Shown: positions 2,072-18,228 of the stretch, piece by piece | How positions within the stretch are numbered: the first letter of the stretch is position 1 | Layout of the letters: every line of letters begins with the position of its first letter | Source: Promethearchaeia archaeon | GTDB taxonomy: Archaea; Asgardarchaeota; Lokiarchaeia; Sigyniarchaeales; SOKP01 | Length of the DNA: 32,000 nucleotides | Assembly (NCBI GenBank): GCA_046497275.1 | Contig: JAWOFX010000130.1 | Span: 1-32,000, forward strand | Direction of reading: 5' to 3' | Position numbers and translations under genes: made by a program | Notes under the pieces: model-generated | The model's input: only the letters and a program-made list of their open reading frames with translations | What the model was told of the DNA's origin: nothing | The model's database searches: none

Positions 2072-3445
2072 TTGTATGTTATGGTTGATCTAAATAAGAT
2101 TATTGATTATTTCAAAAATTCTAAGATTCCCGAAAATATGCTTAATCGTGGACAATTAGTACTCAATGAATTTCTAAATCCTCTAAAAGTATTGTTTGAG
2201 CAAAAAGCATTACCTAATGAAGGATGGAAAGATGAGCAAATTGAGTTTCTTTTGCAGATACTAGCAAATATGGACACAGACAAAGATATAAATGCTTCTC
2301 AAGTAGGAGAACGAGAGGCTCGAATTGCTTCGAAGTTGCATTTAAACATCTCTGGTGGATTTTGTCACGGAGTAGGAAGAAGTGGATTTTTAACTGCTCC
2401 CCAACCGAAAGCACCTGGAGGATCAATAATGTACGAAATAACTAACTATCTTGCTCGAGATATTATGAGAAAATTTGGTCTTCCAAACATTAAAAAAGCA
2501 ATTATCACCCCTATCGCTACAGGGATGTCTCTCGCATTAGCATTATCTGCTTTTAAGCCCAATTGGAATAATATACAGCTTAGATCAAAAAGAAAAGTCT
2601 TAATTCCGAGGTTAGATCATCATTCCATATTAAAATCAATAGATTTTATTGGTCTTGAGCCTAAGATTATTGACGGAAAAATTTTTGGTGATGCTGTTAG
2701 AATTCCCATAGATGATATCCGAAATGCTTATGAAGATGAATGTTATGCGATCATCTCTTTTACGAGTTTTTTTCCTCCCCGTGAAGCGGATGAAATTAAA
2801 GAAATTAGTAAGTTCGCAAAAGAAAAAGATCTTGTCCATATTATTGTTAATGCTTATGGGGTTCAAAGTCCAGAATGGATGGGGTTAATCCGATCAGCAA
2901 TAGACGCAGGAAAAGTTGATGCTGTGATTCAATCCACTGATAAAAACTTTCTTACTCCTGTCGGCGCTTCATTAATTGCCTCCCCTGATAAAGAAAAAAT
3001 TGAAAAGATCAGTAAAACTTATGCGGGAAGAGCTTCTGCTTCCCCTGTTGTAAACTTTCTTATATCTATGTTGTCATTAGGAAAAAATGGTTATGAAAAA
3101 CTCATAAAAGATCAACAAGAAAACCGAAAATTCCTTGAACAAAAATTAAACATTTTAGCAGAAAAAATTAATGAGCGAGTGATGAATATTTTTAATCCTG
3201 TGGCCGTTTCAATGACATTAAATCATCTAAAAAAAGATGAATTATATGCTTTGGGTGGAGCATTATATAATCTCAGAGTAACCGGTCCACGAGTATATGA
3301 TCCAAGTCAAAAAGAATTTGGAACTTGTACTGAGGGATATCCTACTCCATATATAGTAATGAATGCCGCAATTGGAAGCAAAAAAGAACATATAAACACT
3401 GCTATCGAAAGACTTGAGAAAGCATACAATCAAATCACTAAATAG
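2072..3445 (+). CDS. spcS: O-phosphoseryl-tRNA(Sec) selenium transferase (SepSecS); start is TTG 2072 or ATG 2081
   Basis: MDTDK...GEREARIAS, FCHGVGRSG..APQPKAPG, PIATGMSL, QSTDKNF (PLP lysine), YAGRAS, LYNLRVTGPR, AAIG; close to tRNA-Sec. Confidence 0.95.
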   Translation: MYVMVDLNKIIDYFKNSKIPENMLNRGQLVLNEFLNPLKVLFEQKALPNEGWKDEQIEFLLQILANMDTDKDINASQVGEREARIASKLHLNISGGFCHGVGRSGFLTAPQPKAPGGSIMYEITNYLARDIMRKFGLPNIKKAIITPIATGMSLALALSAFKPNWNNIQLRSKRKVLIPRLDHHSILKSIDFIGLEPKIIDGKIFGDAVRIPIDDIRNAYEDECYAIISFTSFFPPREADEIKEISKFAKEKDLVHIIVNAYGVQSPEWMGLIRSAIDAGKVDAVIQSTDKNFLTPVGASLIASPDKEKIEKISKTYAGRASASPVVNFLISMLSLGKNGYEKLIKDQQENRKFLEQKLNILAEKINERVMNIFNPVAVSMTLNHLKKDELYALGGALYNLRVTGPRVYDPSQKEFGTCTEGYPTPYIVMNAAIGSKKEHINTAIERLEKAYNQITK

Positions 3446-3635
3446 GGCTTGAAGTGTTCATTCCTTAATTTTATCATATTTTTTATTTAAAATTCTCTTT
3501 CTAAAAAATTTGCCCACTTGATAATTCTTCTATATGCGATGGCTATTAAATAAATTTTTATATTAATTGTATTTTTTCTTTACTAAATAGCTTTCATTTC
3601 AAATTATATATCTCAAGTATTTAGGGATAAACCTC

Positions 3636-4319
3636 ATGGAAAATCGACTTTTAGTTCAGTTTAATAATGTAATTTCTACAGAATGGTTATCAGAGCAATT
3701 TTCTGAACCTTTTAATCCTTTGAATCATAGGGAATTATTTGAATTAACATATCATACCGTTAATAACGTTGGGACAAGGTGTGTTTGGATTAAACTCTTT
3801 CAAGCTTTTAAAAAAGGTTCTAGAGCAATCTTGTACTCTAAAAATAAAACATTCATCTCTATTGAAAATATGGAAGACACCTTAAATGTAAAGTGCTATT
3901 ATAACGATGAGGAAAATGCAAATAGACTCACTACCCAAATTTTACCCACACTTCAAGAAAGAAAGATGAAATTCAATAATAAGGATGATGATATCAAAAC
4001 TCAGCTTTTAAAAACTATTTTAGTTGAGAGAAAGATTGATGAATGTGCAAATCTTGTGATGCTAAAGGATATTAATAGAAAAATATATTTTGCGATTGGA
4101 GATGCGAGGGAATCCGCTGCAGTTGTTCCATTATTTATGGAAGCGGAAGGTTCGCGATTAGTTCAATTAGCATTAAATAAATGGATGGCAACCGCGCAAA
4201 ATCTTCCTTCTGAAGAAGCTTTTCCAGAAAATAGAGTCCCTGGATTATTGAAGAATTTAATGCAGATCAAAAAATGGGTTTTAAATCTAATCACTTCTTA
4301 TTTGGATAAGGATCAGTAA
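3636..4319 (+). CDS. Hypothetical protein (227 aa)
   Basis: Long ORF with ATG start and normal codon usage; no family recognised. Confidence 0.75.
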   Translation: MENRLLVQFNNVISTEWLSEQFSEPFNPLNHRELFELTYHTVNNVGTRCVWIKLFQAFKKGSRAILYSKNKTFISIENMEDTLNVKCYYNDEENANRLTTQILPTLQERKMKFNNKDDDIKTQLLKTILVERKIDECANLVMLKDINRKIYFAIGDARESAAVVPLFMEAEGSRLVQLALNKWMATAQNLPSEEAFPENRVPGLLKNLMQIKKWVLNLITSYLDKDQ

Positions 4320-4544
4320 AATTTTCGATAATTTCTTCTAGGTCGTAATTTTACTCTTTTTTATGGAATATCAACTGAGAAGGTATTCTATAAAAAAATT
4401 TTTATGTTTTATTATTTTAGTTAGATTAATAACACAGTTAAAACTGATTACCATACCCATAAAATAATTCATAATAACCGGTTATCTCAGAATTACAGCT
4501 CCATGATTGAGTAATTAAAACTGTGTAACCGAAGAGTTAGTTAA

Positions 4545-4725
4545 GCTCCCGTTGCTTAGCTTGGTTAACAAGCAATAGGTTCTTGTCTTGACCGACAAGC
4601 GCAGGTCTTATAAATGGCCGATGGACAAACAATCAAGAACAACTGTCCATAATAGTAAAAACCTGAGATCGGGGGTTCAAATATGATTCTCATTTCGAGA
4701 TTCATGGATTTTCCCCCCGGGAGCA
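4545..4725 (+). tRNA. Probable tRNA-Ile (anticodon UAU) with three introns: 4568-4596 (position 21/22), about 4613-4659 (37/38) and 4682-4711 (59/60)
   Basis: Acceptor GCTCCCG/CGGGAGC plus A73; D-stem GCTT/AAGC; anticodon stem CAGGT/ACCTG; short variable loop AGATC; T-stem GGGGG/CCCCC with TTCAAA|T loop. The D-loop intron has a clean hBHBh' (GCT/AGC, TGGT/ACCG, CAAG/CTTG). The T-loop intron has a relaxed BHB. The anticodon intron has a TGTCCAT/ATGGACA stem but an imperfect central helix. Confidence 0.8.
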
Positions 4726-4764
4726 AAATACTTCTCTTCAAATTTATTTTCCGAATAATTATGT

Positions 4765-5097
4765 ATGTTAACTAATATGTCCATCAATTTCTCAACAGAA
4801 GCAAAAGATTTTATTAAAAATAATAATATCAAATATCTTTTCTTAGATGTTGATACTATAGAAGAGGGATGTACAGCAATATATAATCCTAATCTAAAAA
4901 TTGTTTCCAATAAAATTAATTCAGAGCAAGTAATTGAAAACATTGAAACAGAAGATATTCAATTATTTATTTCAAAGGATTTTAATTCACTTTTTGGTAT
5001 ACAAAAGCAATTTGAAGTAGATCTTGTCGGGTTTTTCGAAAAAGTTTTAACAATCACTAATATTGAAGCGAAAACCAAAAACATATGTAAAGTATAA
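4765..5097 (+). CDS. Small HesB/IscA-like-fold protein (tentative); likely start ATG 4777
   Basis: N-terminus INFSTEAKDFIK followed by a hydrophobic strand and EEGC resembles HesB-like proteins; weak, by-eye similarity. Confidence 0.4.
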   Translation: MLTNMSINFSTEAKDFIKNNNIKYLFLDVDTIEEGCTAIYNPNLKIVSNKINSEQVIENIETEDIQLFISKDFNSLFGIQKQFEVDLVGFFEKVLTITNIEAKTKNICKV

Positions 5098-5330: not shown

Positions 5331-5759
5331 TTGGCTGAAATGTTGACGGATCTGCTCCAGAACATTTATTCTCGTATAGCTCAGCTAGGTAAAGCTATCC
5401 AAGGGCTAAAAAATTCCTTAGATGGGCTTAATCAAAACATAGAGGATAAAATCACGAATCTTAATGAAAAGATGGGGCAGTTTTCCAAAGAAATTGCGGT
5501 CGCACAAACAAAACATTTAGATGTTATAACTGAGATTGGGAAAGGTGCAAAAAAGGAAATTGAGGTAGTTCAAGAAGGATTAGGACTTAAAGCATTGAAG
5601 AAGATGATATCTGATATGGAAAATTTTTCTAAATTAGCGGAGGAAGTTTTAAATCAAGATACAGTAAATTTATTATTATCAGAAGCAATTTCCTCAGTAA
5701 AAACTCTAAAAAAACAACAAGAAGCAAAAGTAGTTAAACAAACACCTAAAAATGAATAA
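5331..5759 (+). CDS. Coiled-coil protein (142 aa, TTG start)
   Basis: Heptad-patterned, all-helical composition; no transmembrane segment; SD-like GGTGAT upstream. Confidence 0.75.
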   Translation: MAEMLTDLLQNIYSRIAQLGKAIQGLKNSLDGLNQNIEDKITNLNEKMGQFSKEIAVAQTKHLDVITEIGKGAKKEIEVVQEGLGLKALKKMISDMENFSKLAEEVLNQDTVNLLLSEAISSVKTLKKQQEAKVVKQTPKNE

Positions 5760-5780
5760 ATCTAATGGTGGATAAAAAAA

Positions 5781-6212
5781 ATGGGAAATGAAATGGAAAC
5801 CCTTTTGGAAGAGATGATAACCAAGATTAATCAGATAATGGAATCACTCGATGGTACTATCTCACAGATTAATCAAATGAATGAATCTATAAATTTAATG
5901 AGCGATAAATTTTCTCAAGAAATCGTTAGTTTAACAGAAAATGTGCGATTAATAGTTGAGGCTTTAAAACAATTTAGAGTCCAATCCAATAAAAGCATGC
6001 AAGAACTTTCAGATGATTTAAATGAAAGGATTGAGGAATTATGGGAAAATAAGTCTATTGAAGCAATTTTAGAAGATGAAAAGAAAGCTATTGGGACTAT
6101 TAAGAAAGCGCAAAAAACCGTAAGCGATAATCTCTATTATGCTCAACTTCTTACAATAATACAATCAATTCGAGAGGAAACTAACCGAATTCTTACAAGT
6201 TGCGATATCTAA
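5781..6212 (+). CDS. Coiled-coil protein (143 aa)
   Basis: Heptad-patterned; 21 bp after the previous gene; SD-like GGTGGA upstream. Confidence 0.8.
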   Translation: MGNEMETLLEEMITKINQIMESLDGTISQINQMNESINLMSDKFSQEIVSLTENVRLIVEALKQFRVQSNKSMQELSDDLNERIEELWENKSIEAILEDEKKAIGTIKKAQKTVSDNLYYAQLLTIIQSIREETNRILTSCDI

Positions 6213-6358
6213 TTTTTATTAAATAATTATTTATTTTCCAATAAATACTATTTTTAATAATACTACCCATATATCTTTTAATTTCTTTTAATAATCTTTT
6301 ATATAGCACAAATAAGATATTCAAATTAAAAATCAAATAAAGAAAAAGTGAAAGTAAA

Positions 6359-7264
6359 ATGCCTAAAGGAACGTTTTGTATCATTTTACCATTTGATTCA
6401 GATTATAAGGTTCTCGGTACTTACTTTAAGGATAAAGAAGGGAAAGATTTTGAAATAACTAGCAATTTATTCCTACGATTAAACCTAGATCTGGAACGAA
6501 ATCAATATTCATTTTTAAAGATAGATGAGGATCGGATTTTTTCATATATTCATAAATTCACTGGAAAAATAAAACTTAAAGCTTCTGGAATTATTGTTGG
6601 TTTACTTTTAGAAGAGGGTGAGAAACCAGAGAAATATAGGCCTTTACTCAAAGACGCTGCTGAAACTATTGAGGAAATAGATTTGTTAGATATACCACGT
6701 GATAAATTTGAGGCGGAATTGAAAGAGGTATATCAAGAGATTATAGAGCCATTAATGGATCTTATGACTCCAGAAAATATTAAACAAAGTATTATAAATA
6801 GAACGAAATCTTTATTATCAGGAAGCAAAAATGATAGGAAATTGGCTCAAGAGTTAGTTGAGAGGGTGGAAGATGAAGAACATATAAAGATTGCAAACCT
6901 TTATAAAGAAGCTGAAAAGGCGTTAAAAATAAAGGAATTTGATAAAGCTGCTAAGAATTATTCAAAGGCTACTGAAATCTCAGAAGAATTACTAGGAGAA
7001 GATAATGAAATTACGAACACTTTATGCGAAAGAGCATCATTTTGCGAAAAAATTCCGGAATTATCCAAAAATCGAGATAAAATTGTTCAAAATGCGAGAG
7101 ACGCTTTAAGAAATGAGGATTTCCATGAAGCTTATAAATTATATAGAGAAGCGAGTGAAATATCTAAAGAATTAGTCCAATTTGACAAGGAAGAAGAATA
7201 TAGGTTAAAATCTAAGGCGTTAAATGATTTCTATCAAGTTGATCAGAGATATAAGAATAATTGA
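6359..7264 (+). CDS. Putative longin/roadblock-like N-terminal domain plus two TPR/MIT-like helical repeats
   Basis: N-terminal beta-beta-alpha-beta-beta-beta-alpha pattern (FCIILPFD..VLGTYF..FLRLNL..RIFSY..GIIVGLLL..LLKDAAE). Two internal repeats: EAEKALKIKEFDKAAKNYSKATEISEEL and NARDALRNEDFHEAYKLYREASEISKEL. Confidence 0.55.
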   Translation: MPKGTFCIILPFDSDYKVLGTYFKDKEGKDFEITSNLFLRLNLDLERNQYSFLKIDEDRIFSYIHKFTGKIKLKASGIIVGLLLEEGEKPEKYRPLLKDAAETIEEIDLLDIPRDKFEAELKEVYQEIIEPLMDLMTPENIKQSIINRTKSLLSGSKNDRKLAQELVERVEDEEHIKIANLYKEAEKALKIKEFDKAAKNYSKATEISEELLGEDNEITNTLCERASFCEKIPELSKNRDKIVQNARDALRNEDFHEAYKLYREASEISKELVQFDKEEEYRLKSKALNDFYQVDQRYKNN

Positions 7265-7282
7265 ATAGAATTCTATTTAAAA

Positions 7283-8107
7283 TTGAATATGAATATTATA
7301 AGTTTATTAACAGATTTTGGTTCACGAGGTTCTCATTACGTTGCCGCGATGAAAGCTGTCATATTAAATATTTCTCCTGAGACCAAAATCATCGATCTTT
7401 CACATATGGTTAAACCATTCTCAATAATAGAAGGATCCTATATACTAAAATCCAACTATTCATATTTTCCCAAACAAACTATTTTTGTGGTAGTAATTGA
7501 TCCAGGAGTTGGTAGTGAACGAGGGATTCTAGCACTAAAAACTAATGATGGTTATTATTTCGTAGGACCAGATAATGGGATTTTACCTGCAGCTTTAGGT
7601 CATAACATAGAAAAATGTGCTCTTGTTGAAAATGATAAATATTTTCATAGACCAGTATCCTCTACATTTCATGGAAGAGATATAATGAGTCCAGTAGCAG
7701 CATATATTTCTTTGAAAACACCATTAAAAAATATTGGACCAATAATAAATCAAAAACAACTAAAAATGATTGAAATTCCTTTAGAAATCAAACCAGACCA
7801 AAGAAAAATTAAATGTTGTATTCAATATATTGATGAATTTGGAAATATCACTACAAATATACCATTAAAAAAGAATAAAATTAGCAATACTGATATTACT
7901 TTATCAGAAAAAACCAGAATAAAAGTAAGGAAAAATAATTCTATATTTGAAGGAAACTATAGCTCACATTTTGCATCTGTTTCTAAAGATTCATTATTAT
8001 TTTTACAAGGTTCTACGGGTTTTCTTGAAATTTCTATAAATCAAGGAAATGCTTCTAAAATATTGGATATCTCCTCTGGAGATGTCATAAAATTACAATT
8101 AGAATGA
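7283..8107 (+). CDS. SAM hydroxide adenosyltransferase / SAM-dependent halogenase family (DUF62)
   Basis: IISLLTDFG, VIDPGVGSER, FVGPDNG, STFHGRDI, YIDEFGNITTN, GFLEISINQGNA. Confidence 0.92.
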   Translation: MNMNIISLLTDFGSRGSHYVAAMKAVILNISPETKIIDLSHMVKPFSIIEGSYILKSNYSYFPKQTIFVVVIDPGVGSERGILALKTNDGYYFVGPDNGILPAALGHNIEKCALVENDKYFHRPVSSTFHGRDIMSPVAAYISLKTPLKNIGPIINQKQLKMIEIPLEIKPDQRKIKCCIQYIDEFGNITTNIPLKKNKISNTDITLSEKTRIKVRKNNSIFEGNYSSHFASVSKDSLLFLQGSTGFLEISINQGNASKILDISSGDVIKLQLE

Positions 8108-8118
8108 AGTGATTCAAC

Positions 8119-9267
8119 TTGGAAGATGAAATTTTAGCATGTATTAAAGAAAAAGATATTAAATATTTGCATTCAGGACAGATTGCTAAACATGTCTTCC
8201 CAGTTGAGAGAAAAGAAGCTCATAATAAGGGAATCCCTCATTTAATTGTCAGAATTTTTATTATTAAGAGAAAAGATAAAAATGATATTGACTTCCTTGT
8301 TCAAAAAAGAAGTACAAATAAAAAAACGTATCCTGGTTATTTTACAGATTCTGCCAGTGGTCATATTGTCTATGAAAAAGGATTAGATCTCTCAAGTATC
8401 AAAGAAAATGCTTATCGTGAGTTAGAAGAGGAAGTTGGAATAAAAGAAAAAGATCTCAAGAAATTAATTTTTTATGACTTTAAATCTGAAAAAGATGAAC
8501 TCTCACGAGAAGTTGCATATATTTTTTTAGGTGTAACAAAAGAAAACGTCGATTTAAAATTAAATCAAGAGGAATTAGAAACCGATTCGACTAAGTTCTA
8601 TTCCCGCTCAGAATTAGAAAATATTATTAATAATAAGGATCTAGTTGATCATTCCAAAGAGGTATGGAAAGAATTATTATCTTCTGATTTGAGTTCCATC
8701 ATTAATGAACAAACAAAATCAACGAATGAAACTGATAATAGTATAGCTCTTTTTATTGGTAGATTCCAACCTCTTCATCATGGTCATATTCATGTGTTAT
8801 ATAGGATTTTTGAAACATATGATTATGTGAAAATAGCAATTGGGAGTTCTCAAATATCACATACAAAAGAAAATCCATTTACTAAAGAGGAAAGAAAAAA
8901 GTTTATTGAAGGTGCTTTAAAAAAGAGGGAAATAAGGAAAGAAAATTACCACATTTATTATATTCCGGACATTTTTAATGCGAAAAAATGGGTCGAACAT
9001 GTCGTTTCTATTGTGGGTGATTTTGATAAAGTAGTATCGAATAGTGATTGGGTACGAGAATTATTCAAAAATGAAAATTATAAGCTCTCTAAAAAAATAA
9101 CTCTCTTTAAAAATAAATATAATGGTACACATATAAGAGAATTAATAGCTGAGGGAAATGAAAAATATAGATTGCTCGTACCAAATGAAGTGTTAAATAT
9201 TATGAAAGATTGTAATGGTTTTGAACGAATTCAAAAATTATATGAAGAAGAGGATAATTATGAATGA
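8119..9267 (+). CDS. Fusion of an N-terminal Nudix (IDI-like) domain and a C-terminal NMN adenylyltransferase (NadM-like) domain
   Basis: AHNKGIPH..LVQKRS..KKTYPG..SASGH..AYRELEEEVGI (Nudix box); then FIGRFQPLHHGH, IAIGSSQ..NPFT..ER, YNGTHIRELI..LLVP (NMNAT). Confidence 0.88.
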   Translation: MEDEILACIKEKDIKYLHSGQIAKHVFPVERKEAHNKGIPHLIVRIFIIKRKDKNDIDFLVQKRSTNKKTYPGYFTDSASGHIVYEKGLDLSSIKENAYRELEEEVGIKEKDLKKLIFYDFKSEKDELSREVAYIFLGVTKENVDLKLNQEELETDSTKFYSRSELENIINNKDLVDHSKEVWKELLSSDLSSIINEQTKSTNETDNSIALFIGRFQPLHHGHIHVLYRIFETYDYVKIAIGSSQISHTKENPFTKEERKKFIEGALKKREIRKENYHIYYIPDIFNAKKWVEHVVSIVGDFDKVVSNSDWVRELFKNENYKLSKKITLFKNKYNGTHIRELIAEGNEKYRLLVPNEVLNIMKDCNGFERIQKLYEEEDNYE

Positions 9268-10339
9268 GAAAAAAGAAAAATTATCCATCGATGGTTCTTT
9301 TGGCGAAGGAGGAGGCTCTATTTTACGCTTGAGTGTTGGATTCTCAATATTATTCAATCAGCCTATTAGAATTTATAATATAAGGGCAAATCGATCAAAA
9401 CCGGGTTTACGATTACAACATCTACTAGGATTAAAAACTTTAGCTAATTTAACTGATAGTGATCTTAGTAAGTGTTCAGTAGGAACACAAGAGATAACCT
9501 TTAAACCTAATACTAAACATTTAAAAGAAAAAATTAAAGTTGATATTGGAACTGCTGCAAGCGTTGGATTATTATTACAACCTATACAAATTGCATGCTT
9601 GAAATTCTCTGAACCATCAGAGATTATCATTGATCTTAATGGTGGTGGTACGTTGGGAAAATGGGCACCCGGACTTCATTATTTAAATAATGTAACCTAT
9701 CAAATATTTAGAAATTCAGGATATGATATAGATTTAGAAATTCACAAATATGGCTTTTTTCCTAAAGGTGGAGCTATAACCCGTTGTAAAATCCATCCCC
9801 CTCAAAATGAATTGAAAGCAATTAAAATTACAGAATTAGGTAATATTAATCTCATTGAGGGAAAAATAGTTTGTACAAATAATCTCTCCAAAGCAAAGGT
9901 TTCAGAGAGAATCAAATCATCTGCGGAGGAAACAATTGCTCAGGAATTAACCGATAAAACTGATATAAGATATCAATATGTAGACGCATTAAGTACAGGA
10001 GTAGGGCTTTCATTATGGGCAGAGTCTGATACGGGCGCAATAATTTCATCTGGAACAATAATAGGGGAGAAAAATATATCTTCAGAAAAAGTGGGAAGAA
10101 TGGCAGCAGATGAAATTATTACATATATTAAAAATAAAATTCCTGTGGATAAATATCTAAGCGATCAACTTATCCCTTTGATGGCTTATATCAACCAATC
10201 CTCCAGGATCAAAGTCTTAGAAATAACAAGCCATGCGAAAACAAATCTAGAACTACTAAAATTATTTACAAATAGAGAATATCACATTGAAAAAAAAGAA
10301 AATTATGCATTAATCGAATATGAAGAGATAAATCAATAA
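9260..10339 (+). CDS. rtcA: RNA 3'-terminal phosphate cyclase
   Basis: IDGSFGEGGGSILR, IRANRSKPGLRLQHL, LNGGT, GFFPKGG, VDKYLSDQLIP, HAKTN. ATG 9260 overlaps the upstream stop codon. Confidence 0.93.
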   Translation: MNEKKEKLSIDGSFGEGGGSILRLSVGFSILFNQPIRIYNIRANRSKPGLRLQHLLGLKTLANLTDSDLSKCSVGTQEITFKPNTKHLKEKIKVDIGTAASVGLLLQPIQIACLKFSEPSEIIIDLNGGGTLGKWAPGLHYLNNVTYQIFRNSGYDIDLEIHKYGFFPKGGAITRCKIHPPQNELKAIKITELGNINLIEGKIVCTNNLSKAKVSERIKSSAEETIAQELTDKTDIRYQYVDALSTGVGLSLWAESDTGAIISSGTIIGEKNISSEKVGRMAADEIITYIKNKIPVDKYLSDQLIPLMAYINQSSRIKVLEITSHAKTNLELLKLFTNREYHIEKKENYALIEYEEINQ

Positions 10340-10437
10340 TTATATTTACTATTGTTCTCAGAAAATAGTAATGAACAAGAAAAATTTTTATTTGTAAATT
10401 TTATGTTAATTATAAAAAGTTTTTAGTTTTTGAAAAT

Positions 10438-11373
10438 ATGTCAATCTCAACCGCTATTCAAAGGTGCCCACGCTGTGGGAACGAGAATCGTTCGGACTCC
10501 TATGCATGTAGTTTTTGCGGTAAAAGACTAAGAATTGAACAAATTGAGAAAATTCCCTTATTGAACCGGATTGAAGAAGAATGGACAAATCCTTATCCAA
10601 TTTATATAAAACTATTATATCTTCTGATAAATCCCGCAAGAGCTTTCTGGGATATAAATCATCTTCGGAAAAAAAGCCCCGGATACCTTATCTTATTATT
10701 TAACTCTTTAGTATCTGGATTAATAGGTTGGGCATTTATTTTTCATTTTAAATTTCTCTCTATTGGTGGAGTCTCTCCTGCCCCTCCCCTTTGGGTTTTC
10801 GTGTATAAATTAAGTTTTTTCTTAGCATATTTTCTATTTGCTTTTCTCTCTCAATTTTTATTTTATAAATTTTTGATATGGATATATACAAAGGGAGCAA
10901 ATTATTCTGTTGGATTTACTGAGAGAATAGAAGCGAGATTTGAAAGCGCTTCTACAGAGGCTTCTAGTTATAAGGAAAGAGAACTCAGTCCATTTAGTAT
11001 ATACAAAGGTGGTACTCTCTTACAAAAACAAGAGGCATATAAATCAAAAATGATGATGTGTGCTTTCTTTCCATATTTTATCATCAATCTTATTAAGTTC
11101 TTTATCGTATTAATCGGATTTCCTACAATTTATGTTGATGCAAGTGGTCCTATAGATCCCTTAATTTTTACTACGATGGTTAATTCCCCTATTTGGATCC
11201 CCCTCTATATTTTAGATGGGATTACTTTAGCAGTTTGGATTCCAATACTTGTTACAATCGCAATTAGAGAATTATCTAACTCATCAACAATTCGAGTACT
11301 GATTCCATCATATATTATTAGTATCTTAGTAGCTGTATTTTTCTTTTTTATAAGACCTGTATTTATTCCTTAA
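10438..11373 (+). CDS. Zinc-ribbon plus Yip1-like multi-pass membrane protein
   Basis: N-terminal CPRCG..CSFCG; LLINPARAFWDI (Yip1-type P..F motif); about five hydrophobic helices with a polar loop. Confidence 0.7.
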   Translation: MSISTAIQRCPRCGNENRSDSYACSFCGKRLRIEQIEKIPLLNRIEEEWTNPYPIYIKLLYLLINPARAFWDINHLRKKSPGYLILLFNSLVSGLIGWAFIFHFKFLSIGGVSPAPPLWVFVYKLSFFLAYFLFAFLSQFLFYKFLIWIYTKGANYSVGFTERIEARFESASTEASSYKERELSPFSIYKGGTLLQKQEAYKSKMMMCAFFPYFIINLIKFFIVLIGFPTIYVDASGPIDPLIFTTMVNSPIWIPLYILDGITLAVWIPILVTIAIRELSNSSTIRVLIPSYIISILVAVFFFFIRPVFIP

Positions 11374-11435
11374 CTTTATTAGGTTAGAAATCCACATTTA
11401 TTGCAGCATTAATTAAATTTTAAAAGATTTTATTA

Positions 11436-12080
11436 ATGAAGTATCGGGAGAAATCAGTATCGCAACTAGAATCAGAATTATTCGCTAATATTAGTATTAT
11501 TAATAAAATCTATGTTAGATATCAGAAAGGGCAATTAAATTCTGATTTTTTCCAAAAATCTTTTAAAAACGCTGTATACGAATTATTAAAAATAAAAATT
11601 GCTTTAAAAGAAAAAAACATCCTTCTTTCTAATTTAATTAAGGATAATAATTATATGGAGGAATATAATCAAGCAATGCTAGTCGTCGACAGAGTTTCAG
11701 AATTAAATCTAGCAAAAACATCATATAAATCAGGTTTGGATGTAGATAATCGATATTCACAAATACTTAAGAATTCTCTTTTACATTTACCTGGATTAAC
11801 TTCTGAAATTACAAGCTTGTTTATAACCCTAATGGATGCCATAAAATTAGAAATTTCAGTAGGGGGATCTTATATTTTGAATTTATTCCAAGAATTAATA
11901 AAGCAAACTAGAACTTTCCCTGGTCTTAAAAATCTTTCTCAGAAAATAACTAAAATTTATAATCATGTGAAAAAAAACTTGGAAACCTTAAAAAAAAATC
12001 AAGATTATCAAGAAAAAGTAGTCAATCATTTATATGAGATTTTTCAAGAATTCCAACATCTCATCAGTCTAAAAATATAA
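11436..12080 (+). CDS. vps28: Vps28-like protein (ESCRT-I subunit homolog)
   Basis: ESELFANISIINKIYVRY resembles Vps28 N-terminal AELFAVVKTMQALEKAY. SLFITLMDAIKLE resembles SLFITVMDKLRLE of the Vps28 C-terminal bundle. FPG and a terminal YEIFQEF helix also fit, as does the length (214 aa). Compared from memory. Confidence 0.75.
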   Translation: MKYREKSVSQLESELFANISIINKIYVRYQKGQLNSDFFQKSFKNAVYELLKIKIALKEKNILLSNLIKDNNYMEEYNQAMLVVDRVSELNLAKTSYKSGLDVDNRYSQILKNSLLHLPGLTSEITSLFITLMDAIKLEISVGGSYILNLFQELIKQTRTFPGLKNLSQKITKIYNHVKKNLETLKKNQDYQEKVVNHLYEIFQEFQHLISLKI

Positions 12081-12150: not shown

Positions 12151-12420
12151 ATGCCACGACCTGGTTTAAGATCTAAAAGTCAGAAGCGGAAAGAAGTCAG
12201 AACGCCGGGAAATAAAAATAAGAAGCATTATTGGAGAAAAACACCAAGTAGAGCCGTATGTGCCATATGTAAAAAACCTTTACAATCAATTCCACGAGAA
12301 CGACCTTCAAAAATGAAAAAGACAGATAAAACCGAAAGACGACCTACTCGATTGGAAAGTGGCCGTTATTGTGCAAAATGTTTACAAAAATTAATACAAG
12401 AACAAGTTAGACAATCTTAA
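12151..12420 (+). CDS. rpl34e: Ribosomal protein L34e (eL34)
   Basis: MPRPGLRS..VRTPG..HY..CAICKKPL..ERRPTR..GRYCAKCL. Confidence 0.95.
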   Translation: MPRPGLRSKSQKRKEVRTPGNKNKKHYWRKTPSRAVCAICKKPLQSIPRERPSKMKKTDKTERRPTRLESGRYCAKCLQKLIQEQVRQS

Positions 12421-12538
12421 ATTATTATTTTGTTTTCATACTTAAATTTTATTTCTGTATTAAATTTACATCACGAATAAAAAAATAATTATTATATCTG
12501 AGATTCTTTATTTTTAATAATCTATTAAAACCTTATTT

Positions 12539-13084
12539 ATGATTATTTGCATTAGCGGATTTCATGGAACTGGAAAAACCACTGTGGGAAAAAAGGTTGC
12601 TCAGCGACTCAATCTAGATTATTATTCCACTGGACAAGCCTTTAGAGACCTCGCTAAAGAATATGAAATGAATTTAAAAGATTTTTCCAAATATGTCGAA
12701 GATAATCCAGATATTGATAAAAAATTGGATCATAAGGTTATTCAAATGGCTCAGAGGAAAGATGACATAGTCCTTGAGAGTCTTCTTAGCGGATATATTC
12801 TTCAGGGTAAATCAGATTGCTCAATTCTTCTCAAAGCCCCTCTTGAGATAAGAGTAAAACGGATGGTCGAAAGAGATAATTCTGATTTTAAAGAAAAACT
12901 CAAAGAAACAAAAATTAGAGAAAAATCTGAGATTCAACGATTTATCGATTTATATAATATAGATCTGACCGATAGAGAATTGAGATCAGATGTTTTTGAT
13001 TTAATTATCGACACTGGAAATTTATCTGTAGAAGAAGTTGTAGAGAAAATCATCGAATATTTAGAGAAGCAAAAGATTATATAA
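12539..13084 (+). CDS. cmk: Cytidylate kinase, archaeal type
   Basis: IICISGFHGTGKTT, STGQAFR, DIDKKLD, RF..LYNID..DLIIDT; usual position after rpl34e. Confidence 0.93.
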   Translation: MIICISGFHGTGKTTVGKKVAQRLNLDYYSTGQAFRDLAKEYEMNLKDFSKYVEDNPDIDKKLDHKVIQMAQRKDDIVLESLLSGYILQGKSDCSILLKAPLEIRVKRMVERDNSDFKEKLKETKIREKSEIQRFIDLYNIDLTDRELRSDVFDLIIDTGNLSVEEVVEKIIEYLEKQKII

Positions 13085-13147
13085 ATAGATAAATTTCATA
13101 GAAGCAATCACTCTTTCTATTAGTAAATTGTAAAAAAAAGAACCATT

Positions 13148-14041
13148 TTATATATGTTTTTTAATAAAGCTCGCGATCTTTTCTATCGCTTCTTTAGGTT
13201 CCTGAGCAAACTGTGCAAATGCTGCAAATACATGTACCATGTCTTTCCAAATGTCTAATTCTACCTCAACATTAGCTTCTTTTAATTTTTGGGCAATTCT
13301 TTTCGAATCATCTAATAAAATTTCTGATGTACCAACTTGAATATATATCGGAGGAAGTCCATGAAGATCGCCGAATAAAGGGGAAACTAACGGGTTTTTA
13401 GGGTCTACATCTCCTAAATAATTATCTAAAACAAGCTGCCCTAATTCAGGAGTAAGAAAAGGATCAACTTCCGCTTTTGTTGTATATGACTCACCAGAAC
13501 CAGTCATATCAGTCGCGGGCGAAAGGCAAAAAGCGGCTGCGGGGAGCGGTATTTTTAGGTCTCTAAGTTTAATTAAAACTGAAAGTGTTAGCGTTCCACC
13601 AGCAGAATCTCCTCCAATTATTATATTGTTTGGTTTATAACCTTTTTCAGACATAAGCCATTTATATGTGTCGAAACAATCATTTAATCCCGCAGGGAAT
13701 GGATGTTCGGGCGCCAGTCGATAATTTATTGCCAAAACCTTTATTTCTGCTGCTCGAGAGATTCTGGAAATTAAATCTCTATGTGTGTCAATAGAACCCG
13801 CTACAAATGCTCCTCCATGCAAATATAATAAAACTTTGTTCTCAATAACATCTGGAGCTATTATCCATTCTCCTTCTACATTATTTATTTTAACCGGCTC
13901 AAATATAATATCTTCTGGAATTTTACTCATTGCGGCCAATTGATCTAATCCCCGTCTTGTTGATTCAACGCTAGTCTCCTCAGTCATACTTTGAAATTGT
14001 TTTAATAATCCAATCACTCTTTCCATTCCTTTACTAACCAT
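13148..14041 (-). CDS. Alpha/beta hydrolase, HSL-family esterase/lipase
   Basis: LYLHGGAF, NYRLAPEHPFPA, GGDSAGG (catalytic Ser), EILLDD (Asp), MVHVF (His). Confidence 0.95.
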   Translation of the reverse strand: MVSKGMERVIGLLKQFQSMTEETSVESTRRGLDQLAAMSKIPEDIIFEPVKINNVEGEWIIAPDVIENKVLLYLHGGAFVAGSIDTHRDLISRISRAAEIKVLAINYRLAPEHPFPAGLNDCFDTYKWLMSEKGYKPNNIIIGGDSAGGTLTLSVLIKLRDLKIPLPAAAFCLSPATDMTGSGESYTTKAEVDPFLTPELGQLVLDNYLGDVDPKNPLVSPLFGDLHGLPPIYIQVGTSEILLDDSKRIAQKLKEANVEVELDIWKDMVHVFAAFAQFAQEPKEAIEKIASFIKKHI

Positions 14042-14244
14042 ACGCTCACCTTAATCTATTTTTTTCAATATTATTTTTTTAGAATATAAATTAATCTCAC
14101 TAAAGATAAATCTTTCCTACATTTTAACAAATTACAAAAATACAAAATTTTATCAAAAATAGAAAATTTCTAATTTTAATATAATAACGTTATCAGACTG
14201 GTGAAAACAAGTTTGATAACAGAATAAAAAAATTTGGTGACAAA

Positions 14245-14523
14245 TTGGATATGAGTGTTTATGATATTGGACGCGTCTGTGTGAAAACATTGGGACGTGA
14301 GGCTGCAAAGCATTGCGTAATTGTTGATATAATTGACAAAAATTATCTTCTTATTGATGGTACTAAAGTGAAACGTAGAAGAGTGAACTATAAACATATT
14401 GAACCTCTTGATGAGGTTATAGAACTCAAAAAAGGAGCAAAACATGATGATGTAATAGCTGCCATAAAGAAAGCTAAATTAGAAGATTTATTCAATAGCA
14501 CAGTTGAGATCCCTATAAAATAA
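14245..14523 (+). CDS. rpl14e: Ribosomal protein L14e (eL14); start may be ATG 14251
   Basis: IGRVCVKTLGREA..CVIVDIIDKNYLLIDG..VKRRRVNYKHIEP. Confidence 0.95.
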   Translation: MDMSVYDIGRVCVKTLGREAAKHCVIVDIIDKNYLLIDGTKVKRRRVNYKHIEPLDEVIELKKGAKHDDVIAAIKKAKLEDLFNSTVEIPIK

Positions 14524-14544
14524 AATATTAGAGTACATAATCAA

Positions 14545-14561
14545 AATAGAAGATTTAAATA
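14545..14561 (+). promoter_or_regulatory. BRE/TATA promoter of tRNA-Ser
   Basis: Purine-rich AATAGAAGA followed by TTTAAATA (14554-14561), starting 23 nt before the mature tRNA 5' end. Confidence 0.55.
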
Positions 14562-14576
14562 CTTTTCTTATTTAGT

Positions 14577-14679
14577 GCAGCGGTCGCTTAGCCTGGTAGA
14601 GCGCTGGCTTGGAGATAGGATAACCTACCATAAAGCCAGTGCGTTTTAACGTGCGGGGGTTCGAATCCCTCCCGCTGCG
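14577..14679 (+). tRNA. tRNA-Ser (anticodon GGA) with a canonical 19-nt intron (14615-14633)
   Basis: Acceptor GCAGCGG/CCGCTGC plus G73; anticodon stem CTGGC/GCCAG with GGA at 14611-14613; long variable arm; GGGGG TTCGAAT CCCTC T-arm; BHB with TAGG/CCTA; T-rich tract downstream. Confidence 0.95.
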
Positions 14680-14909
14680 CTTTTGATTTCTTTTTTTATT
14701 GAATTTTTTATTCTCTTTTTAACTTCAATAGTTTAATCTATAATTAAAAAAGATCGTGAAAGGTCAATTTAAAGATCTTACAAACATATCCAAAGGCATA
14801 TCAGAATAATATTTCAACGATAATTTCTAACTTTTATTTTAAAAGCAGTAAATATAATTTACTTGTTTAATTTTCAAAAAAAGGAAAAAATACAATTTAG
14901 GGTGAAAGA

Positions 14910-15269
14910 ATGCGAATAATTGGTATACCAAGTGATGGTCCAGAATTAAATGATAAAATCTCAGATCATTTTGGGCACTGTAATTATTTTGTGGGAGTTA
15001 AAATTGACGACGAGATGAATATTATAAAGGAATTTGCCTTCAAAAACGACGGTCATTCGAGCTGTATGGAACCTGTCCTTAATATGAGAGATAAGCAGGT
15101 TTCCGATATGATAGTTGGTGGAATTGGAGGACGCCCATATATGGGATTTCTTCAAGTTGGCATCAATTTATATCAAGGAATAGAGGGTAATTTAAAAGAG
15201 AATGTTATGCAGTTGATTAATAAAAATTTGAAACCCTTGGGAGAACCCAGCTGCTCCGGAACGAACTAA
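14910..15269 (+). CDS. NifB/NifX family (dinitrogenase Fe-Mo cofactor-binding-like) protein
   Basis: ISDHFGHCNYF, VSDMIVGGIGGRP, GINLY, C-terminal SCSG. Confidence 0.88.
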   Translation: MRIIGIPSDGPELNDKISDHFGHCNYFVGVKIDDEMNIIKEFAFKNDGHSSCMEPVLNMRDKQVSDMIVGGIGGRPYMGFLQVGINLYQGIEGNLKENVMQLINKNLKPLGEPSCSGTN

Positions 15270-15416
15270 ACACACAAAAACTAATTCCTATAATTAAATC
15301 CTTTAGGTTTTTTCAACATTTTTATTTATTGAATAGGGTAGGGCATTAGTATTTTTCTTTTTAATTTATTCACTTTTATTCTTTTCCCTTAAATATCCCT
15401 ATGTAAAATACTTTAT

Positions 15417-15773
15417 ATGAAAACATTTACGCAAACTTTAGAACCAAACCTTAAATGTGGTATTTGTGGAAATGAAATTATTGATCGAAAATCTTCGTAT
15501 CACTCAAAATTTATTCCTTGCTCCGCTTGTGAAAGATGTAGATCAATATTCTCCAAAAAGGATATTGAAATCATGCTTAATATGTTTCTTGCCTATGGAG
15601 GATATTTCGGGCAACTGTCTGAGAAAAATTTCTCGCTTGAATCATACTTGGAAAAAATAGGAATTAAACAAAATTTAAAAACCGAACAAACTGAAGAATT
15701 AAAAGTATTGATTTTACACAACTTATTATTGCATGGAATTACACTACAAAAATACTTCCATCTTATTAAATGA
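15417..15773 (+). CDS. Hypothetical Cys-rich, putative zinc-binding protein
   Basis: CGICG..CSACERC followed by a helical domain. Confidence 0.65.
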   Translation: MKTFTQTLEPNLKCGICGNEIIDRKSSYHSKFIPCSACERCRSIFSKKDIEIMLNMFLAYGGYFGQLSEKNFSLESYLEKIGIKQNLKTEQTEELKVLILHNLLLHGITLQKYFHLIK

Positions 15774-15864
15774 ATAAGCTTACTAATTATTACTAATCTC
15801 TCTATACCAAATCTAAATATACCAGAAAAAAATAATTATATAATAGCAATAAATAAGTTATTAA

Positions 15865-16533
15865 TTAAACATCTGGGAATTCCAGAGCTTTCGCCTTGCT
15901 TCCTCCCATCATCTGCTCCATCCCTCCCGAGGATTGTGTTTGCAACCCTAAGAGTCTCTGAACTAGTGTATTTATGCCTAGACTGCATAAAAAATACCAG
16001 GCGGTAAAATTAATCCATCCAGCTTCTAATCCTATTGCTCTTACAGTTCCATAAAAAAGGTACGTCCAATCTTCTACATCACAAGATGATCGGACAATCC
16101 CTCCTATTAACGGTATATCGTTCGCATTCATTGCTGTTAACGCAACAGGTCCATTCCCGAATAATCCTCGGATTACAGCAAATAAGATAATCATTGGCAA
16201 AAACGTAATGCATGTAGGCTTAAGTCGTTGCATTGACATACTTTGTTGTGTTTTTTTAAGCATTTCATCCTTTCTTTCCCATCGCTTTCTTAGTTTCAAA
16301 TATCTATTAGGATCTACTTCAGCTATATCTATAATCTTTTCTTTTTTCTCTTCATGAGCTTTAATTTGTCGCTGTTTGCGTTCTAATTCATCAGTATCTA
16401 CGAGCCATTTTGTGAGTCCAGCACTTACGAGTGCGATGGTGGCTGCAATTAGTAATATAATAAACATAGATCCAGGCGGATCTAATAACCAATTTATATC
16501 CAAAGTTTGTTGGATATTAATGAATAAAATCAT
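15865..16533 (-). CDS. EMC3/TMCO1 family (DUF106, Oxa1 superfamily) membrane insertase
   Basis: TM1, cytosolic coiled coil, Q..MSMQRLKP..ITFLPMI, and AWYFLCS; follows secY as in many archaea. Confidence 0.9.
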   Translation of the reverse strand: MILFINIQQTLDINWLLDPPGSMFIILLIAATIALVSAGLTKWLVDTDELERKQRQIKAHEEKKEKIIDIAEVDPNRYLKLRKRWERKDEMLKKTQQSMSMQRLKPTCITFLPMIILFAVIRGLFGNGPVALTAMNANDIPLIGGIVRSSCDVEDWTYLFYGTVRAIGLEAGWINFTAWYFLCSLGINTLVQRLLGLQTQSSGGMEQMMGGSKAKALEFPDV

Positions 16534-16779
16534 ATCTCTACTTTAATTAGATTAGCATTAATTTAAAAATTTACTTTTACTGAGGTTTATTGAACTTTCA
16601 ATAATTTTGGATTTATTCTCTTATCCAAAATAAATAAAAATAATCAATTTCTGGAATTTTAATCTATTTATATTATAAATTGTAAAAGGATATTTTCATG
16701 AATCATCTGTTTTGTCTTATTAGGAAAACTGTCTTCCATTCAGAATTTTAAATGAAAATCGTGTGAATTAAATTTTTAA

Positions 16780-18228
16780 TCAATCTAAACCTAATAATCC
16801 TCTCATACCAGGATATTGCGCAGCAGCTAACTCTTTACTTATAGTTTCTGCATATTGATGTGTTATCCCTATGGCGATTAATAAACCTGTTCCAGAGGTA
16901 AGAGCTCCTAAACCATCAGCAAAAAAACTCAATCCGGCGATTATGATGCCATTTAATACTACGAGAGTAGGGATATATCGTTTTAAAATCCGTTCGATAA
17001 TTTTTTCAGAGCTTCTAAACCCTGGTATTTGCATTCCAGAATCAATTATTTGTCCCGCAACATCTCGAGGAGCTAGTCCACTTACTTCCACCCATACTCG
17101 TCCTAAATAAATACACAACAAAATGAAGATCCCCAAATAAATAACCGCTCTCAGAGGATCAGCGAGTAAAGCGGCGATTCCTTGTGGAGGTGAAAGATAA
17201 TACATTAACCCCCCAGTAGGTATTAAATAATTAGTTCCTGACGCCTCTGAAGGCTCAAACATACCTATTAGATTAAGGAAAAAATTAGTACCGTTATGTG
17301 AATTCCAAATCATTTGACCGAAGAAGAGAAAATTTGCATACAACGCGTTAACAAGAATGACAGGAATAACAGAAACATAAAGTAGTTTCATCGGATATTT
17401 CCCCTTAAACCCTCGATAGCCTCGATACTGCAATGGAATCTCCACTTTTGTCGATTCAAACCAAACTACCATTAAAAAGATTATTACCGTTGTAATACCG
17501 CCTAAAATTGAAGGTAATTGTGTTTCACCCCTGAGGACTATGGTTCCTAAGGTGGTTTCGGGATTTCCATCAAAAAGTGCAGAAAAAAATGCTATTACTA
17601 TTCCTCTTGGTAAACCGTCTTCCCCGGGGATAAAATTAAAAGCATTCCAGAATATCTGGCCCGCAACTCCCGCTGCGATGAATAATGAAACTCCGCTGCC
17701 TAATCCCCATCCTTTTTGAAGTAATTCATCTAATAAAATAATGATTATACCAGCGAAGAAGAGTTGCATAAAAATAAATACTACATTCATAATCCCTAAC
17801 TCATTAATTGGACCGAAAGCACCCCCTAATAGATATGCTGTTGCATTAAACACGGTTAACATCATTGAAAGAACCTTCTGAGCTCCACTAAACATTGATC
17901 TATCATAAGGATCTGCCATATTCACGTTAATTAGCTTTGATCCTAATAATAATTGCATGATTAGACCAGAAGTCACAATAGGACCGATTCCTAATTCTGT
18001 AAGTGTCCCTCTATTACTGGCTAAAATTACCCGCATCCAATAAAAGTAATCTGTAGATTCTTCGAGTTGCACTCCATAAAGGGGAATATTCGACATTACA
18101 AGATATATTATCAAAACTACAGCCGTCCAGATAAATTTTTCTTTAAACGAAACTTCACGCTGAGGTGCTTTTATTTCAGGTGTGATCTTCACAAACGGTG
18201 TGAAAAAACGTATAAATTTAGACGTCAT
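16780..18228 (-). CDS. secY: Protein translocase subunit SecY/Sec61alpha
   Basis: PEIKAPQREVSFKEKFIWT, ASNRGTLTELGIGPIVTSGLIMQLL, DELLQKGWGLGSGVSLFIA, YPMKLLYVSVIP, RYIP, SGTGLLIA. Confidence 0.98.
   Translation of the reverse strand: MTSKFIRFFTPFVKITPEIKAPQREVSFKEKFIWTAVVLIIYLVMSNIPLYGVQLEESTDYFYWMRVILASNRGTLTELGIGPIVTSGLIMQLLLGSKLINVNMADPYDRSMFSGAQKVLSMMLTVFNATAYLLGGAFGPINELGIMNVVFIFMQLFFAGIIIILLDELLQKGWGLGSGVSLFIAAGVAGQIFWNAFNFIPGEDGLPRGIVIAFFSALFDGNPETTLGTIVLRGETQLPSILGGITTVIIFLMVVWFESTKVEIPLQYRGYRGFKGKYPMKLLYVSVIPVILVNALYANFLFFGQMIWNSHNGTNFFLNLIGMFEPSEASGTNYLIPTGGLMYYLSPPQGIAALLADPLRAVIYLGIFILLCIYLGRVWVEVSGLAPRDVAGQIIDSGMQIPGFRSSEKIIERILKRYIPTLVVLNGIIIAGLSFFADGLGALTSGTGLLIAIGITHQYAETISKELAAAQYPGMRGLLGLD

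Follow-up and report, generated by a model that had tools for sequence, protein, structure and literature searches.

Do eight consecutive genes of a Lokiarchaeal genome form one membrane-trafficking system, or does their order have more than one origin? The question is raised by positions 5,331 to 12,080 of the window, i.e. the whole 32,000-nucleotide stretch analysed here, which is the start of contig C33 (JAWOFX010000130.1) of a Promethearchaeia genome of 3.85 Mb and 99% completeness. The first-pass annotation of this DNA had described eight consecutive plus-strand genes with gaps under 150 bp, five of them with actual or possible trafficking-type domains around a DUF62, Nudix-NMNAT and rtcA core. 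It had proposed an unusual version of ESCRT-I, a subcomplex of the endosomal sorting complexes that are required for transport (ESCRT). The gene run is real: its gaps are 21, 146, 18, 11, an overlap, 98 and 62 bp, and the core enzymes are matched by Pfam and NCBI models (Table 1). Our analysis indicates that three different things had been merged in reading this conserved run. We assign a probability of about 0.65 to the reading that a conserved core-gene string carries two independent modules. One is a relic pair of a zinc-ribbon Yip1-family protein (here ZnYip) and Vps28, and the other consists of a coiled-coil pair (CC1 and CC2) with a longin-TPR protein. Known Asgard parts stand here in a new variant arrangement, of which the link between Yip1 and ubiquitin-ESCRT genes is the useful part.

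Gene order is conserved across the Lokiarchaeal order, as was found in a synteny survey of 58 loci. Of the 27 loci with the complete set of eight genes, 26 have them all on one strand. Among the relatives that have the locus are Promethearchaeum syntrophicum (G038) and Ca. Harpocratesius repetitus (G032). CC1 and CC2 are adjacent in 41/41 loci, CC2 and the longin gene in 35/36, and ZnYip and Vps28 are adjacent, within 2 kb of each other, in all 38 loci that have the two genes. The housekeeping links are equally tight, e.g. DUF62-NMNAT in 46/48 loci and Vps28-L34e within 2 kb in 27/27, and therefore order alone defines no system. The string extends beyond the eight genes: SepSecS and an Asgard Sec-system gene lie upstream in most relatives, and past Vps28 the genes for L34e (at 70 bp) and cmk (at 118 bp) follow on the same strand. 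Rearrangements break the run into separate blocks. The CC pair was relocated with SepSecS in one genus (G020, G008 and G065) and alone in another (G030 and G034), and in G027 a longin-DUF62-NMNAT-rtcA block is kept from which both the CC pair and ZnYip are absent. What is seen here is a conserved Lokiarchaeal core-gene string with an arbitrary right boundary, and most of the eight genes are ordinary. A mere housekeeping neighbourhood, the fallback offered at first, describes most of the run but not the ZnYip-Vps28 pair, which has a real older link. The core string, i.e. SepSecS, the Sec-system gene, DUF62, NMNAT, rtcA, L34e, cmk and L14e, has probably gained two independent modules.

The window Vps28 is, judged from its sequence, a full-length orthologue of Lokiarch_10170. 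The family profile matches the C-terminal domain structures 2j9u and 2g3k (E 8e-6) and, over positions 7-67, the headpiece chains 2f6m, 2f66 and 2p22 (E 1e-3). PF03997 is matched by 36 of 38 orthologues (best 3e-13), the window protein alone being just under the Pfam cut-off. The N-terminal hairpin of a steadiness box is present (hhalign 95.7% to an independent steadiness box), and the C-terminal bundle carries a FIT-x-MDA-x-KL motif with F129-I130-T131 invariant. A 22-residue motif of Lokiarch_10170 is identical at 17/22 positions in the window protein and at 22/22 in one orthologue. The two proteins agree in family, length, steadiness box and C-terminal bundle, and both are encoded away from the ESCRT cluster, as the accessible text of Hatano et al. 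2022 (PMC9192718) reports for Asgard ESCRT-I genes. The same text describes a two-hybrid interaction of Lokiarchaeal Vps28 with a Vps23 homologue, probably also with a free steadiness-box protein, and contacts of ESCRT-I with Vps22; within it there is no discussion of the fixed upstream ZnYip or of the repeated clean loss of Vps28. The Vps28 of P. syntrophicum (L042:5984-6646, DSAG12_00114) has 159 aa in the current record QEE14302.2 and 220 aa in the open frame and an earlier version; in the 159-aa annotation, most of the N-terminal steadiness box would be missing.

Vps28 was found in 121 of the 151 genomes of the class. It is cleanly deleted in 12 genomes of six genera, where ZnYip is directly followed by L34e on one contig, and genome searches of these 12 found no Vps28 elsewhere. 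The losses require at least four changes on the concatenated tree, or five if only losses are allowed. Vps22 persists without Vps28, as does a steadiness-box protein on contig C41, and the Vps23-like protein has a patchy distribution that does not follow that of Vps28. Lokiarchaea that retain ESCRT-II can do without Vps28.

No Vps23, ESCRT-II, ESCRT-III or ubiquitin gene is found in the window, as had been noted, and genome searches place these genes on other contigs. The canonical cluster is not co-located in this genome: ubiquitin, E1/E2, Vps23, Vps22, Vps25, Vps4 and the ESCRT-III set are distributed over contigs C39, C41, C45, C79 and C168, with Vps25-like and Vps4-like open reading frames (ORFs) between Vps22 and the second ESCRT-III gene. 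The C41 protein (L097:4085-6238) is a 717-aa zinc-ribbon protein with a coiled coil and a C-terminal steadiness box; its gene adjoins ESCRT-III, and its architecture fits Znr_PH_CC_SB of Makarova et al. 2024 (PMC10936438). The Lokiarchaeal Vps23-like protein has a multi-E2 fold and no Vps23-core match. The UEV model of Pfam was matched nowhere, controls included, and is uninformative.

ZnYip combines four invariant zinc-ribbon cysteines (C10, C13, C24 and C27) with five hydrophobic helices (AlphaFold2 pTM 0.85; TM 0.54 to a Yip1 cluster of the ESM Atlas). Yip1 is matched by 26 of 47 orthologues (best E 3e-10), and a Baldr homologue is above the PF04893 cut-off with 42.3 bits; the window protein alone has no Pfam Yip1 match, and a VIA-align search with its model gave no match above Z 5.1. 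The family, of the asCOG cog.000454/arCOG02054 type, is in essence a single-copy one; members were detected in 138 of the 151 genomes of the class and in 65 of 80 other Asgard genomes. The five-helix membrane domain is shared with the Yip1/YIPF family (PF04893, arCOG02054), and NCBI names homologues 'YIP1 family protein'. ZnYip differs from that family in its N-terminal C4 ribbon, in an insertion in two Lokiarchaeal families, and in a genomic tie to ubiquitin-ESCRT rather than Rab. The insertion (10888-11050, residues ~151-204) is a conserved stretch of ~45 residues and is absent from all other Asgard copies. The Yip1 assignment is real, but the domain is not eukaryote-specific as the first-pass annotation had implied, since 7 of 14 control prokaryotes have it above the Pfam cut-off.

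Outside Lokiarchaea, ZnYip directly adjoins a ubiquitin or ESCRT gene in 24 of 59 loci, which come from 10 of the 21 families; the neighbours are of four kinds. E1 lies downstream and tail-to-tail in seven families including Baldrarchaeia, ubiquitin is the neighbour in one family and Vps25 in Asgardarchaeum. In one family ZnYip is co-directional with UEV-Vps23 and then Vps28, and in one it sits inside the ubiquitin-ESCRT cluster. As an internal control, no upstream neighbour of ZnYip is common to more than two families. The layouts in other Asgard are ZnYip> E1< E2< Ub< ... UEV-Vps23> Vps28> or ZnYip> UEV-Vps23> Vps28>, and Helarchaeales hold Vps28 inside a canonical cluster. Since ZnYip has the same direction as UEV-Vps23 and Vps28 in the E1-type clusters, removal of the middle would give the Lokiarchaeal order ZnYip> Vps28>. 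With respect to the published Asgard clusters (Hatano et al. 2022, PMC9192718; Lu et al., bioRxiv 10.1101/2023.07.25.550441; Makarova et al. 2024, PMC10936438), ZnYip and Vps28 are members or flanks in Odin-, Baldr-, Hod- and Heimdall-type genomes, whereas in the window only these two are still together, with ubiquitin, E2, the Vps23-like protein, ESCRT-II and ESCRT-III on four other contigs. The invariable Lokiarchaeal pairing and the ubiquitin or ESCRT neighbours in ten families suggest that the pair is most likely a relic of an ancestral Asgard ubiquitin-ESCRT cluster; Yip1 is accordingly a candidate for a membrane-bound part of that system. In the accessible text of the literature searched, Yip1 in the cluster is noted for Hodarchaeia only (Lu et al.), plus listings beside E1 for Kari LC_2 and Hod LC_3 in Table S2 of Makarova et al., where it is unmarked as an ESCRT gene. 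One Asgard family has two tandem ZnYip-like genes (L180, L181) about 5 kb from a ubiquitin gene.

CC1 and CC2 are an undescribed paralogous Asgard coiled-coil family. They are paralogues by hhalign (97.5%, E 6e-12), and 70% of their a/d positions over the first 75-85 residues are hydrophobic, a generic and not a diagnostic feature. In P. syntrophicum, CC1 is DSAG12_00123. Of the two main families, one has CC2 in 66 of 68 genomes and the other in 7 of 7, and distant CC2 matches lie on short contigs only. With a broader profile, Helarchaeales, Jordarchaeia and two more families also proved to have the tandem pair, accompanied in most cases by a third helical paralogue (L221-L236). The pair lies beside a Ras-family GTPase in G046, beside a weak roadblock match and a longin-Arf GTPase fusion in G041, and beside a roadblock-like protein in Jordarchaeales. 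Outside Lokiarchaea, ZnYip and ESCRT genes are generally not in its vicinity; in one genome ZnYip is 13 kb away. Sequence searches of the Protein Data Bank with narrow and broad profiles returned generic coiled coils only, and an ESM Atlas search returned unnamed Asgard clusters only. Comparison with BORC/BLOC-1 gave insignificant matches (SNAPIN E 0.65; Muted in 5/42 members), and a CC1-CC2 complex prediction (score 0.18, mark 0.32) is no evidence either way. An identity with the small coiled-coil protein of the ubiquitin cluster was rejected at hhalign ~10%; that protein has no RING in Pfam. Among the five genes first taken as certain or possible trafficking-type genes, the longin, Yip1 and Vps28 genes stand, and the CC pair has only generic helical matches.

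The CC pair had also been proposed to substitute for Vps37/Mvb12-type stalk subunits. In eukaryotic ESCRT-I (Vps23, Vps28, Vps37 and Mvb12) the steadiness box defines Vps23 and Vps37; the window Vps28 has both of its canonical domains, but the run has no UEV, and CC1 and CC2 have no steadiness box (hhalign 0.2-4.4% against two steadiness-box profiles, with 95.7% for the positive control). There is no Vps23_core match at the CC locus. All 12 Vps28-less genomes keep the pair (CC1 is cut by the contig end in one), and the pair moves independently of Vps28 and ZnYip, both in rearranged genomes and in other Asgard classes. Its conservation in these 12 genomes is above the housekeeping baseline; the p-values of this comparison, and those for the C41 box and for ZnYip, treat kin as independent and so overstate significance. 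The module of the CC pair and the longin-TPR protein is very unlikely to be the ESCRT-I stalk, and the proposed substitution is not supported. The C41 protein is a better stalk candidate. Several Vps28-less lineages show stronger divergence of its steadiness box (ratio 0.74 versus 0.93; clear in four genera, absent in two), which is suggestive only, as a possible signal of co-evolution.

The longin-TPR protein has one longin domain followed by TPR-like hairpins (AlphaFold2 pLDDT 87), and not the longin repeats that had been suggested. The beta-beta-alpha-beta-beta-beta-alpha-alpha fold is present, and VIA-align places the model close to the Vamp7 longin (Z 11.7, root mean square deviation 2.7, 108 aligned) and to a chain of the GATOR1 complex (Z 11.4). 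The same longin fold occurs in the longins of the GTPase-activating protein (GAP) type, i.e. NPRL2, FLCN, SMCR8 and their Asgard relatives (PMC12290439), which have a DENN domain where the window protein has TPR-like repeats. The window protein is without the GP motif, which only 1 of 42 orthologues has, and carries Leu73 at the arginine-finger position, where 30 of 42 orthologues have Arg. Our best guess would be a non-catalytic longin. The Helarchaeales homologues directly follow a Rab-like GTPase gene and keep GP and RR, sharing the GP motif and arginine of the GAP-type longins (PMC12290439). A second longin-TPR paralogue on contig C148 of the source genome (L098:6802-7725) keeps the GP motif, and G006 has its orthologue of the window gene relocated to within 3 kb of the GP-retaining paralogue.

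Several points weigh against the two-module reading. ZnYip is almost unchanged when Vps28 is lost. It was not found in the 7 Helarchaeales searched, although the cluster is complete there, and it is unlinked from ubiquitin and ESCRT genes in Thorarchaeia, Jordarchaeia and other families, about half of the families. Its tie to E1 is tail-to-tail, i.e. convergent and not operonic, and inheritance alone could preserve it. Odin-type copies have no zinc ribbon. As for the other module, Vps28-less genomes show a little more divergence in CC1 and longin-TPR, with a comparison group that is essentially one clade. The GTPase context of the CC pair comes from few genomes and partly from weak roadblock matches, and the tree gives no resolution of the orthology of the GTPase-linked longin-TPR genes of Helarchaeales (support 55/86). 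The first four of these points, and the frequency of Yip1 domains in prokaryotes, would also fit pure hitchhiking, by which historical accident put every gene in its place and ZnYip has a general membrane role, its position next to E1 or Vps28 being inherited and functionally meaningless. We consider this unlikely, since the link is kept in the ten families plus Lokiarchaea and involves five different partner genes, against a turnover of upstream neighbours, and since ZnYip is inside the cluster in one family and co-directional with UEV-Vps23 and Vps28 in another.

Eukaryotic Yip1 binds Rabs. The run could accordingly be viewed as one GTPase-regulated trafficking unit, in which a Rab-like GTPase is acted on by longin-TPR and the CC pair and has Yip1 as its receptor in the membrane, as in yeast, with Vps28 attached; GTPases adjoin ZnYip in two families, as well as the longin-TPR homologues of Helarchaeales. 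Such a unit appears very improbable, because the run has no GTPase, the 59 non-Lokiarchaeal ZnYip loci never have a longin-TPR gene or a clear CC pair within ~10 kb, the GTPase-longin pair occurs in Helarchaeales, where no ZnYip was detected, and the Lokiarchaeal longin is without GAP motifs. The non-canonical ESCRT-I, with CC1/CC2 in place of Vps37/Mvb12 and one module with Vps28, Yip1 and the longin protein, is hardly credible: it can point to the common direction and conserved order, to the stalk donor needed by a Vps23-like protein without Vps23 core and to a weak Mod_r match of CC1 (E 0.015), but Mod_r is outside the top 25 families for the CC1 alignment, the steadiness box is missing, the pair outlives at least four Vps28 losses and shows no linkage with ESCRT genes in other Asgard, and the C41 protein with its diverging box exists.

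According to the two-module reading, Vps28 would be an ordinary Lokiarchaeal ESCRT-I subunit. Its steadiness box would pair with steadiness-box partners encoded elsewhere, most likely the C41 Zn-ribbon-PH-coiled-coil-steadiness-box protein, and its C-terminal bundle would contact ESCRT-II, as the published two-hybrid data on the orthologue suggest. The chances are evenly balanced that ZnYip is a membrane-embedded organiser in the same pathway with its zinc ribbon exposed to the cytoplasm; that it binds Vps28 directly seems improbable. For the CC-longin module, we tentatively suggest, at a little under even odds, that it serves small-GTPase signalling as a heteromeric helical scaffold whose longin is non-catalytic.

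The membrane recruitment of Asgard ESCRT-I calls for an explanation because these cells are without a clear ESCRT-0 and a full Vps36. A single-copy ZnYip, beside ubiquitin-ESCRT genes in other Asgard and beside Vps28 after the Lokiarchaeal cluster broke up, is a concrete recruitment candidate, and the cultured P. syntrophicum has the locus. Setting aside the CC pair as a stalk removes a false lead. The Lokiarchaeal ZnYip ribbon has the pattern C-x2-C-x3-N-x6-C-x2-C without the Trp or TF signature, and we take this to be NZF spacing. In yeast, the Vps36 zinc finger docks the Vps28 C-terminal bundle. By analogy, we offer as a long shot that ZnYip might be the ancestral integral-membrane anchor of the Asgard ubiquitin-ESCRT system, with its zinc ribbon docking the Vps28 C-terminal bundle. 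If true, this anchor would tie ESCRT-I to the membrane in cells without a full Vps36.

Table 1. Features of the gene run and its downstream continuation, in window coordinates.
Feature	Position	Strand	Basis
CC1, 142-aa all-helical coiled-coil protein, paralogue of CC2	5331..5759	+	hhalign, heptad a/d count
CC2, 143-aa coiled-coil protein, directly 3' of CC1	5781..6212	+	single copy, near universal in the order
Longin-TPR protein: longin ~1-132, TPR-like helical hairpins ~138-299	6359..7264	+	AlphaFold2 pLDDT 87
DUF62 S-adenosylmethionine (SAM) hydroxide adenosyltransferase, housekeeping	7283..8107	+	PF01887 E 1e-49, PF20257 E 1e-19
Nudix-NMN adenylyltransferase fusion, housekeeping	8119..9267	+	PF00293, PF01467; NF002243 above cut-off
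RtcA, RNA 3'-terminal phosphate cyclase, housekeeping	9215..10339	+	TIGR03399 283 bits, above cut-off
ZnYip: N-terminal C4 zinc ribbon and five-helix Yip1-family membrane domain	10438..11373	+	family-level profiles, AlphaFold2
Vps28, full-length: N-terminal steadiness box and C-terminal four-helix bundle	11436..12080	+	profiles, structure matches
L34e and cmk, continuing the same co-directional conserved string	12151..13084	+	synteny

The rtcA gene probably starts at the ATG at 9260, which gives 359 aa as in the orthologues. In metatranscriptome contigs of salt-lake samples, the CC1-CC2 junction is bridged in three runs of one study and no contig spans the whole run; such contigs cannot show transcripts or rank genes. 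A sigma-70 promoter scan gave about the shuffle expectation, with a model unsuited to archaea.

In the Nudix-NMNAT fusion, the Nudix part precedes NMNAT, which is the reverse of NadM-Nudix, and it scores best with type 1 isopentenyl pyrophosphate isomerase models, below cut-off. Upstream of the run, 2072-5097 holds SepSecS, an Asgard putative selenocysteine-system gene (NF045535) and an ORF with a weak likeness to the CC/Se-motif type; this ORF occurs at that position only in the source genome and its closest relative. Downstream, L34e-cmk-L14e runs head-on to secY-EMC3 (12151-18228), an orientation opposite to that usually found in the archaeal ribosomal superoperon. Only the source genome and G002 have an alpha/beta-hydrolase gene inserted there, at 13148-14041.

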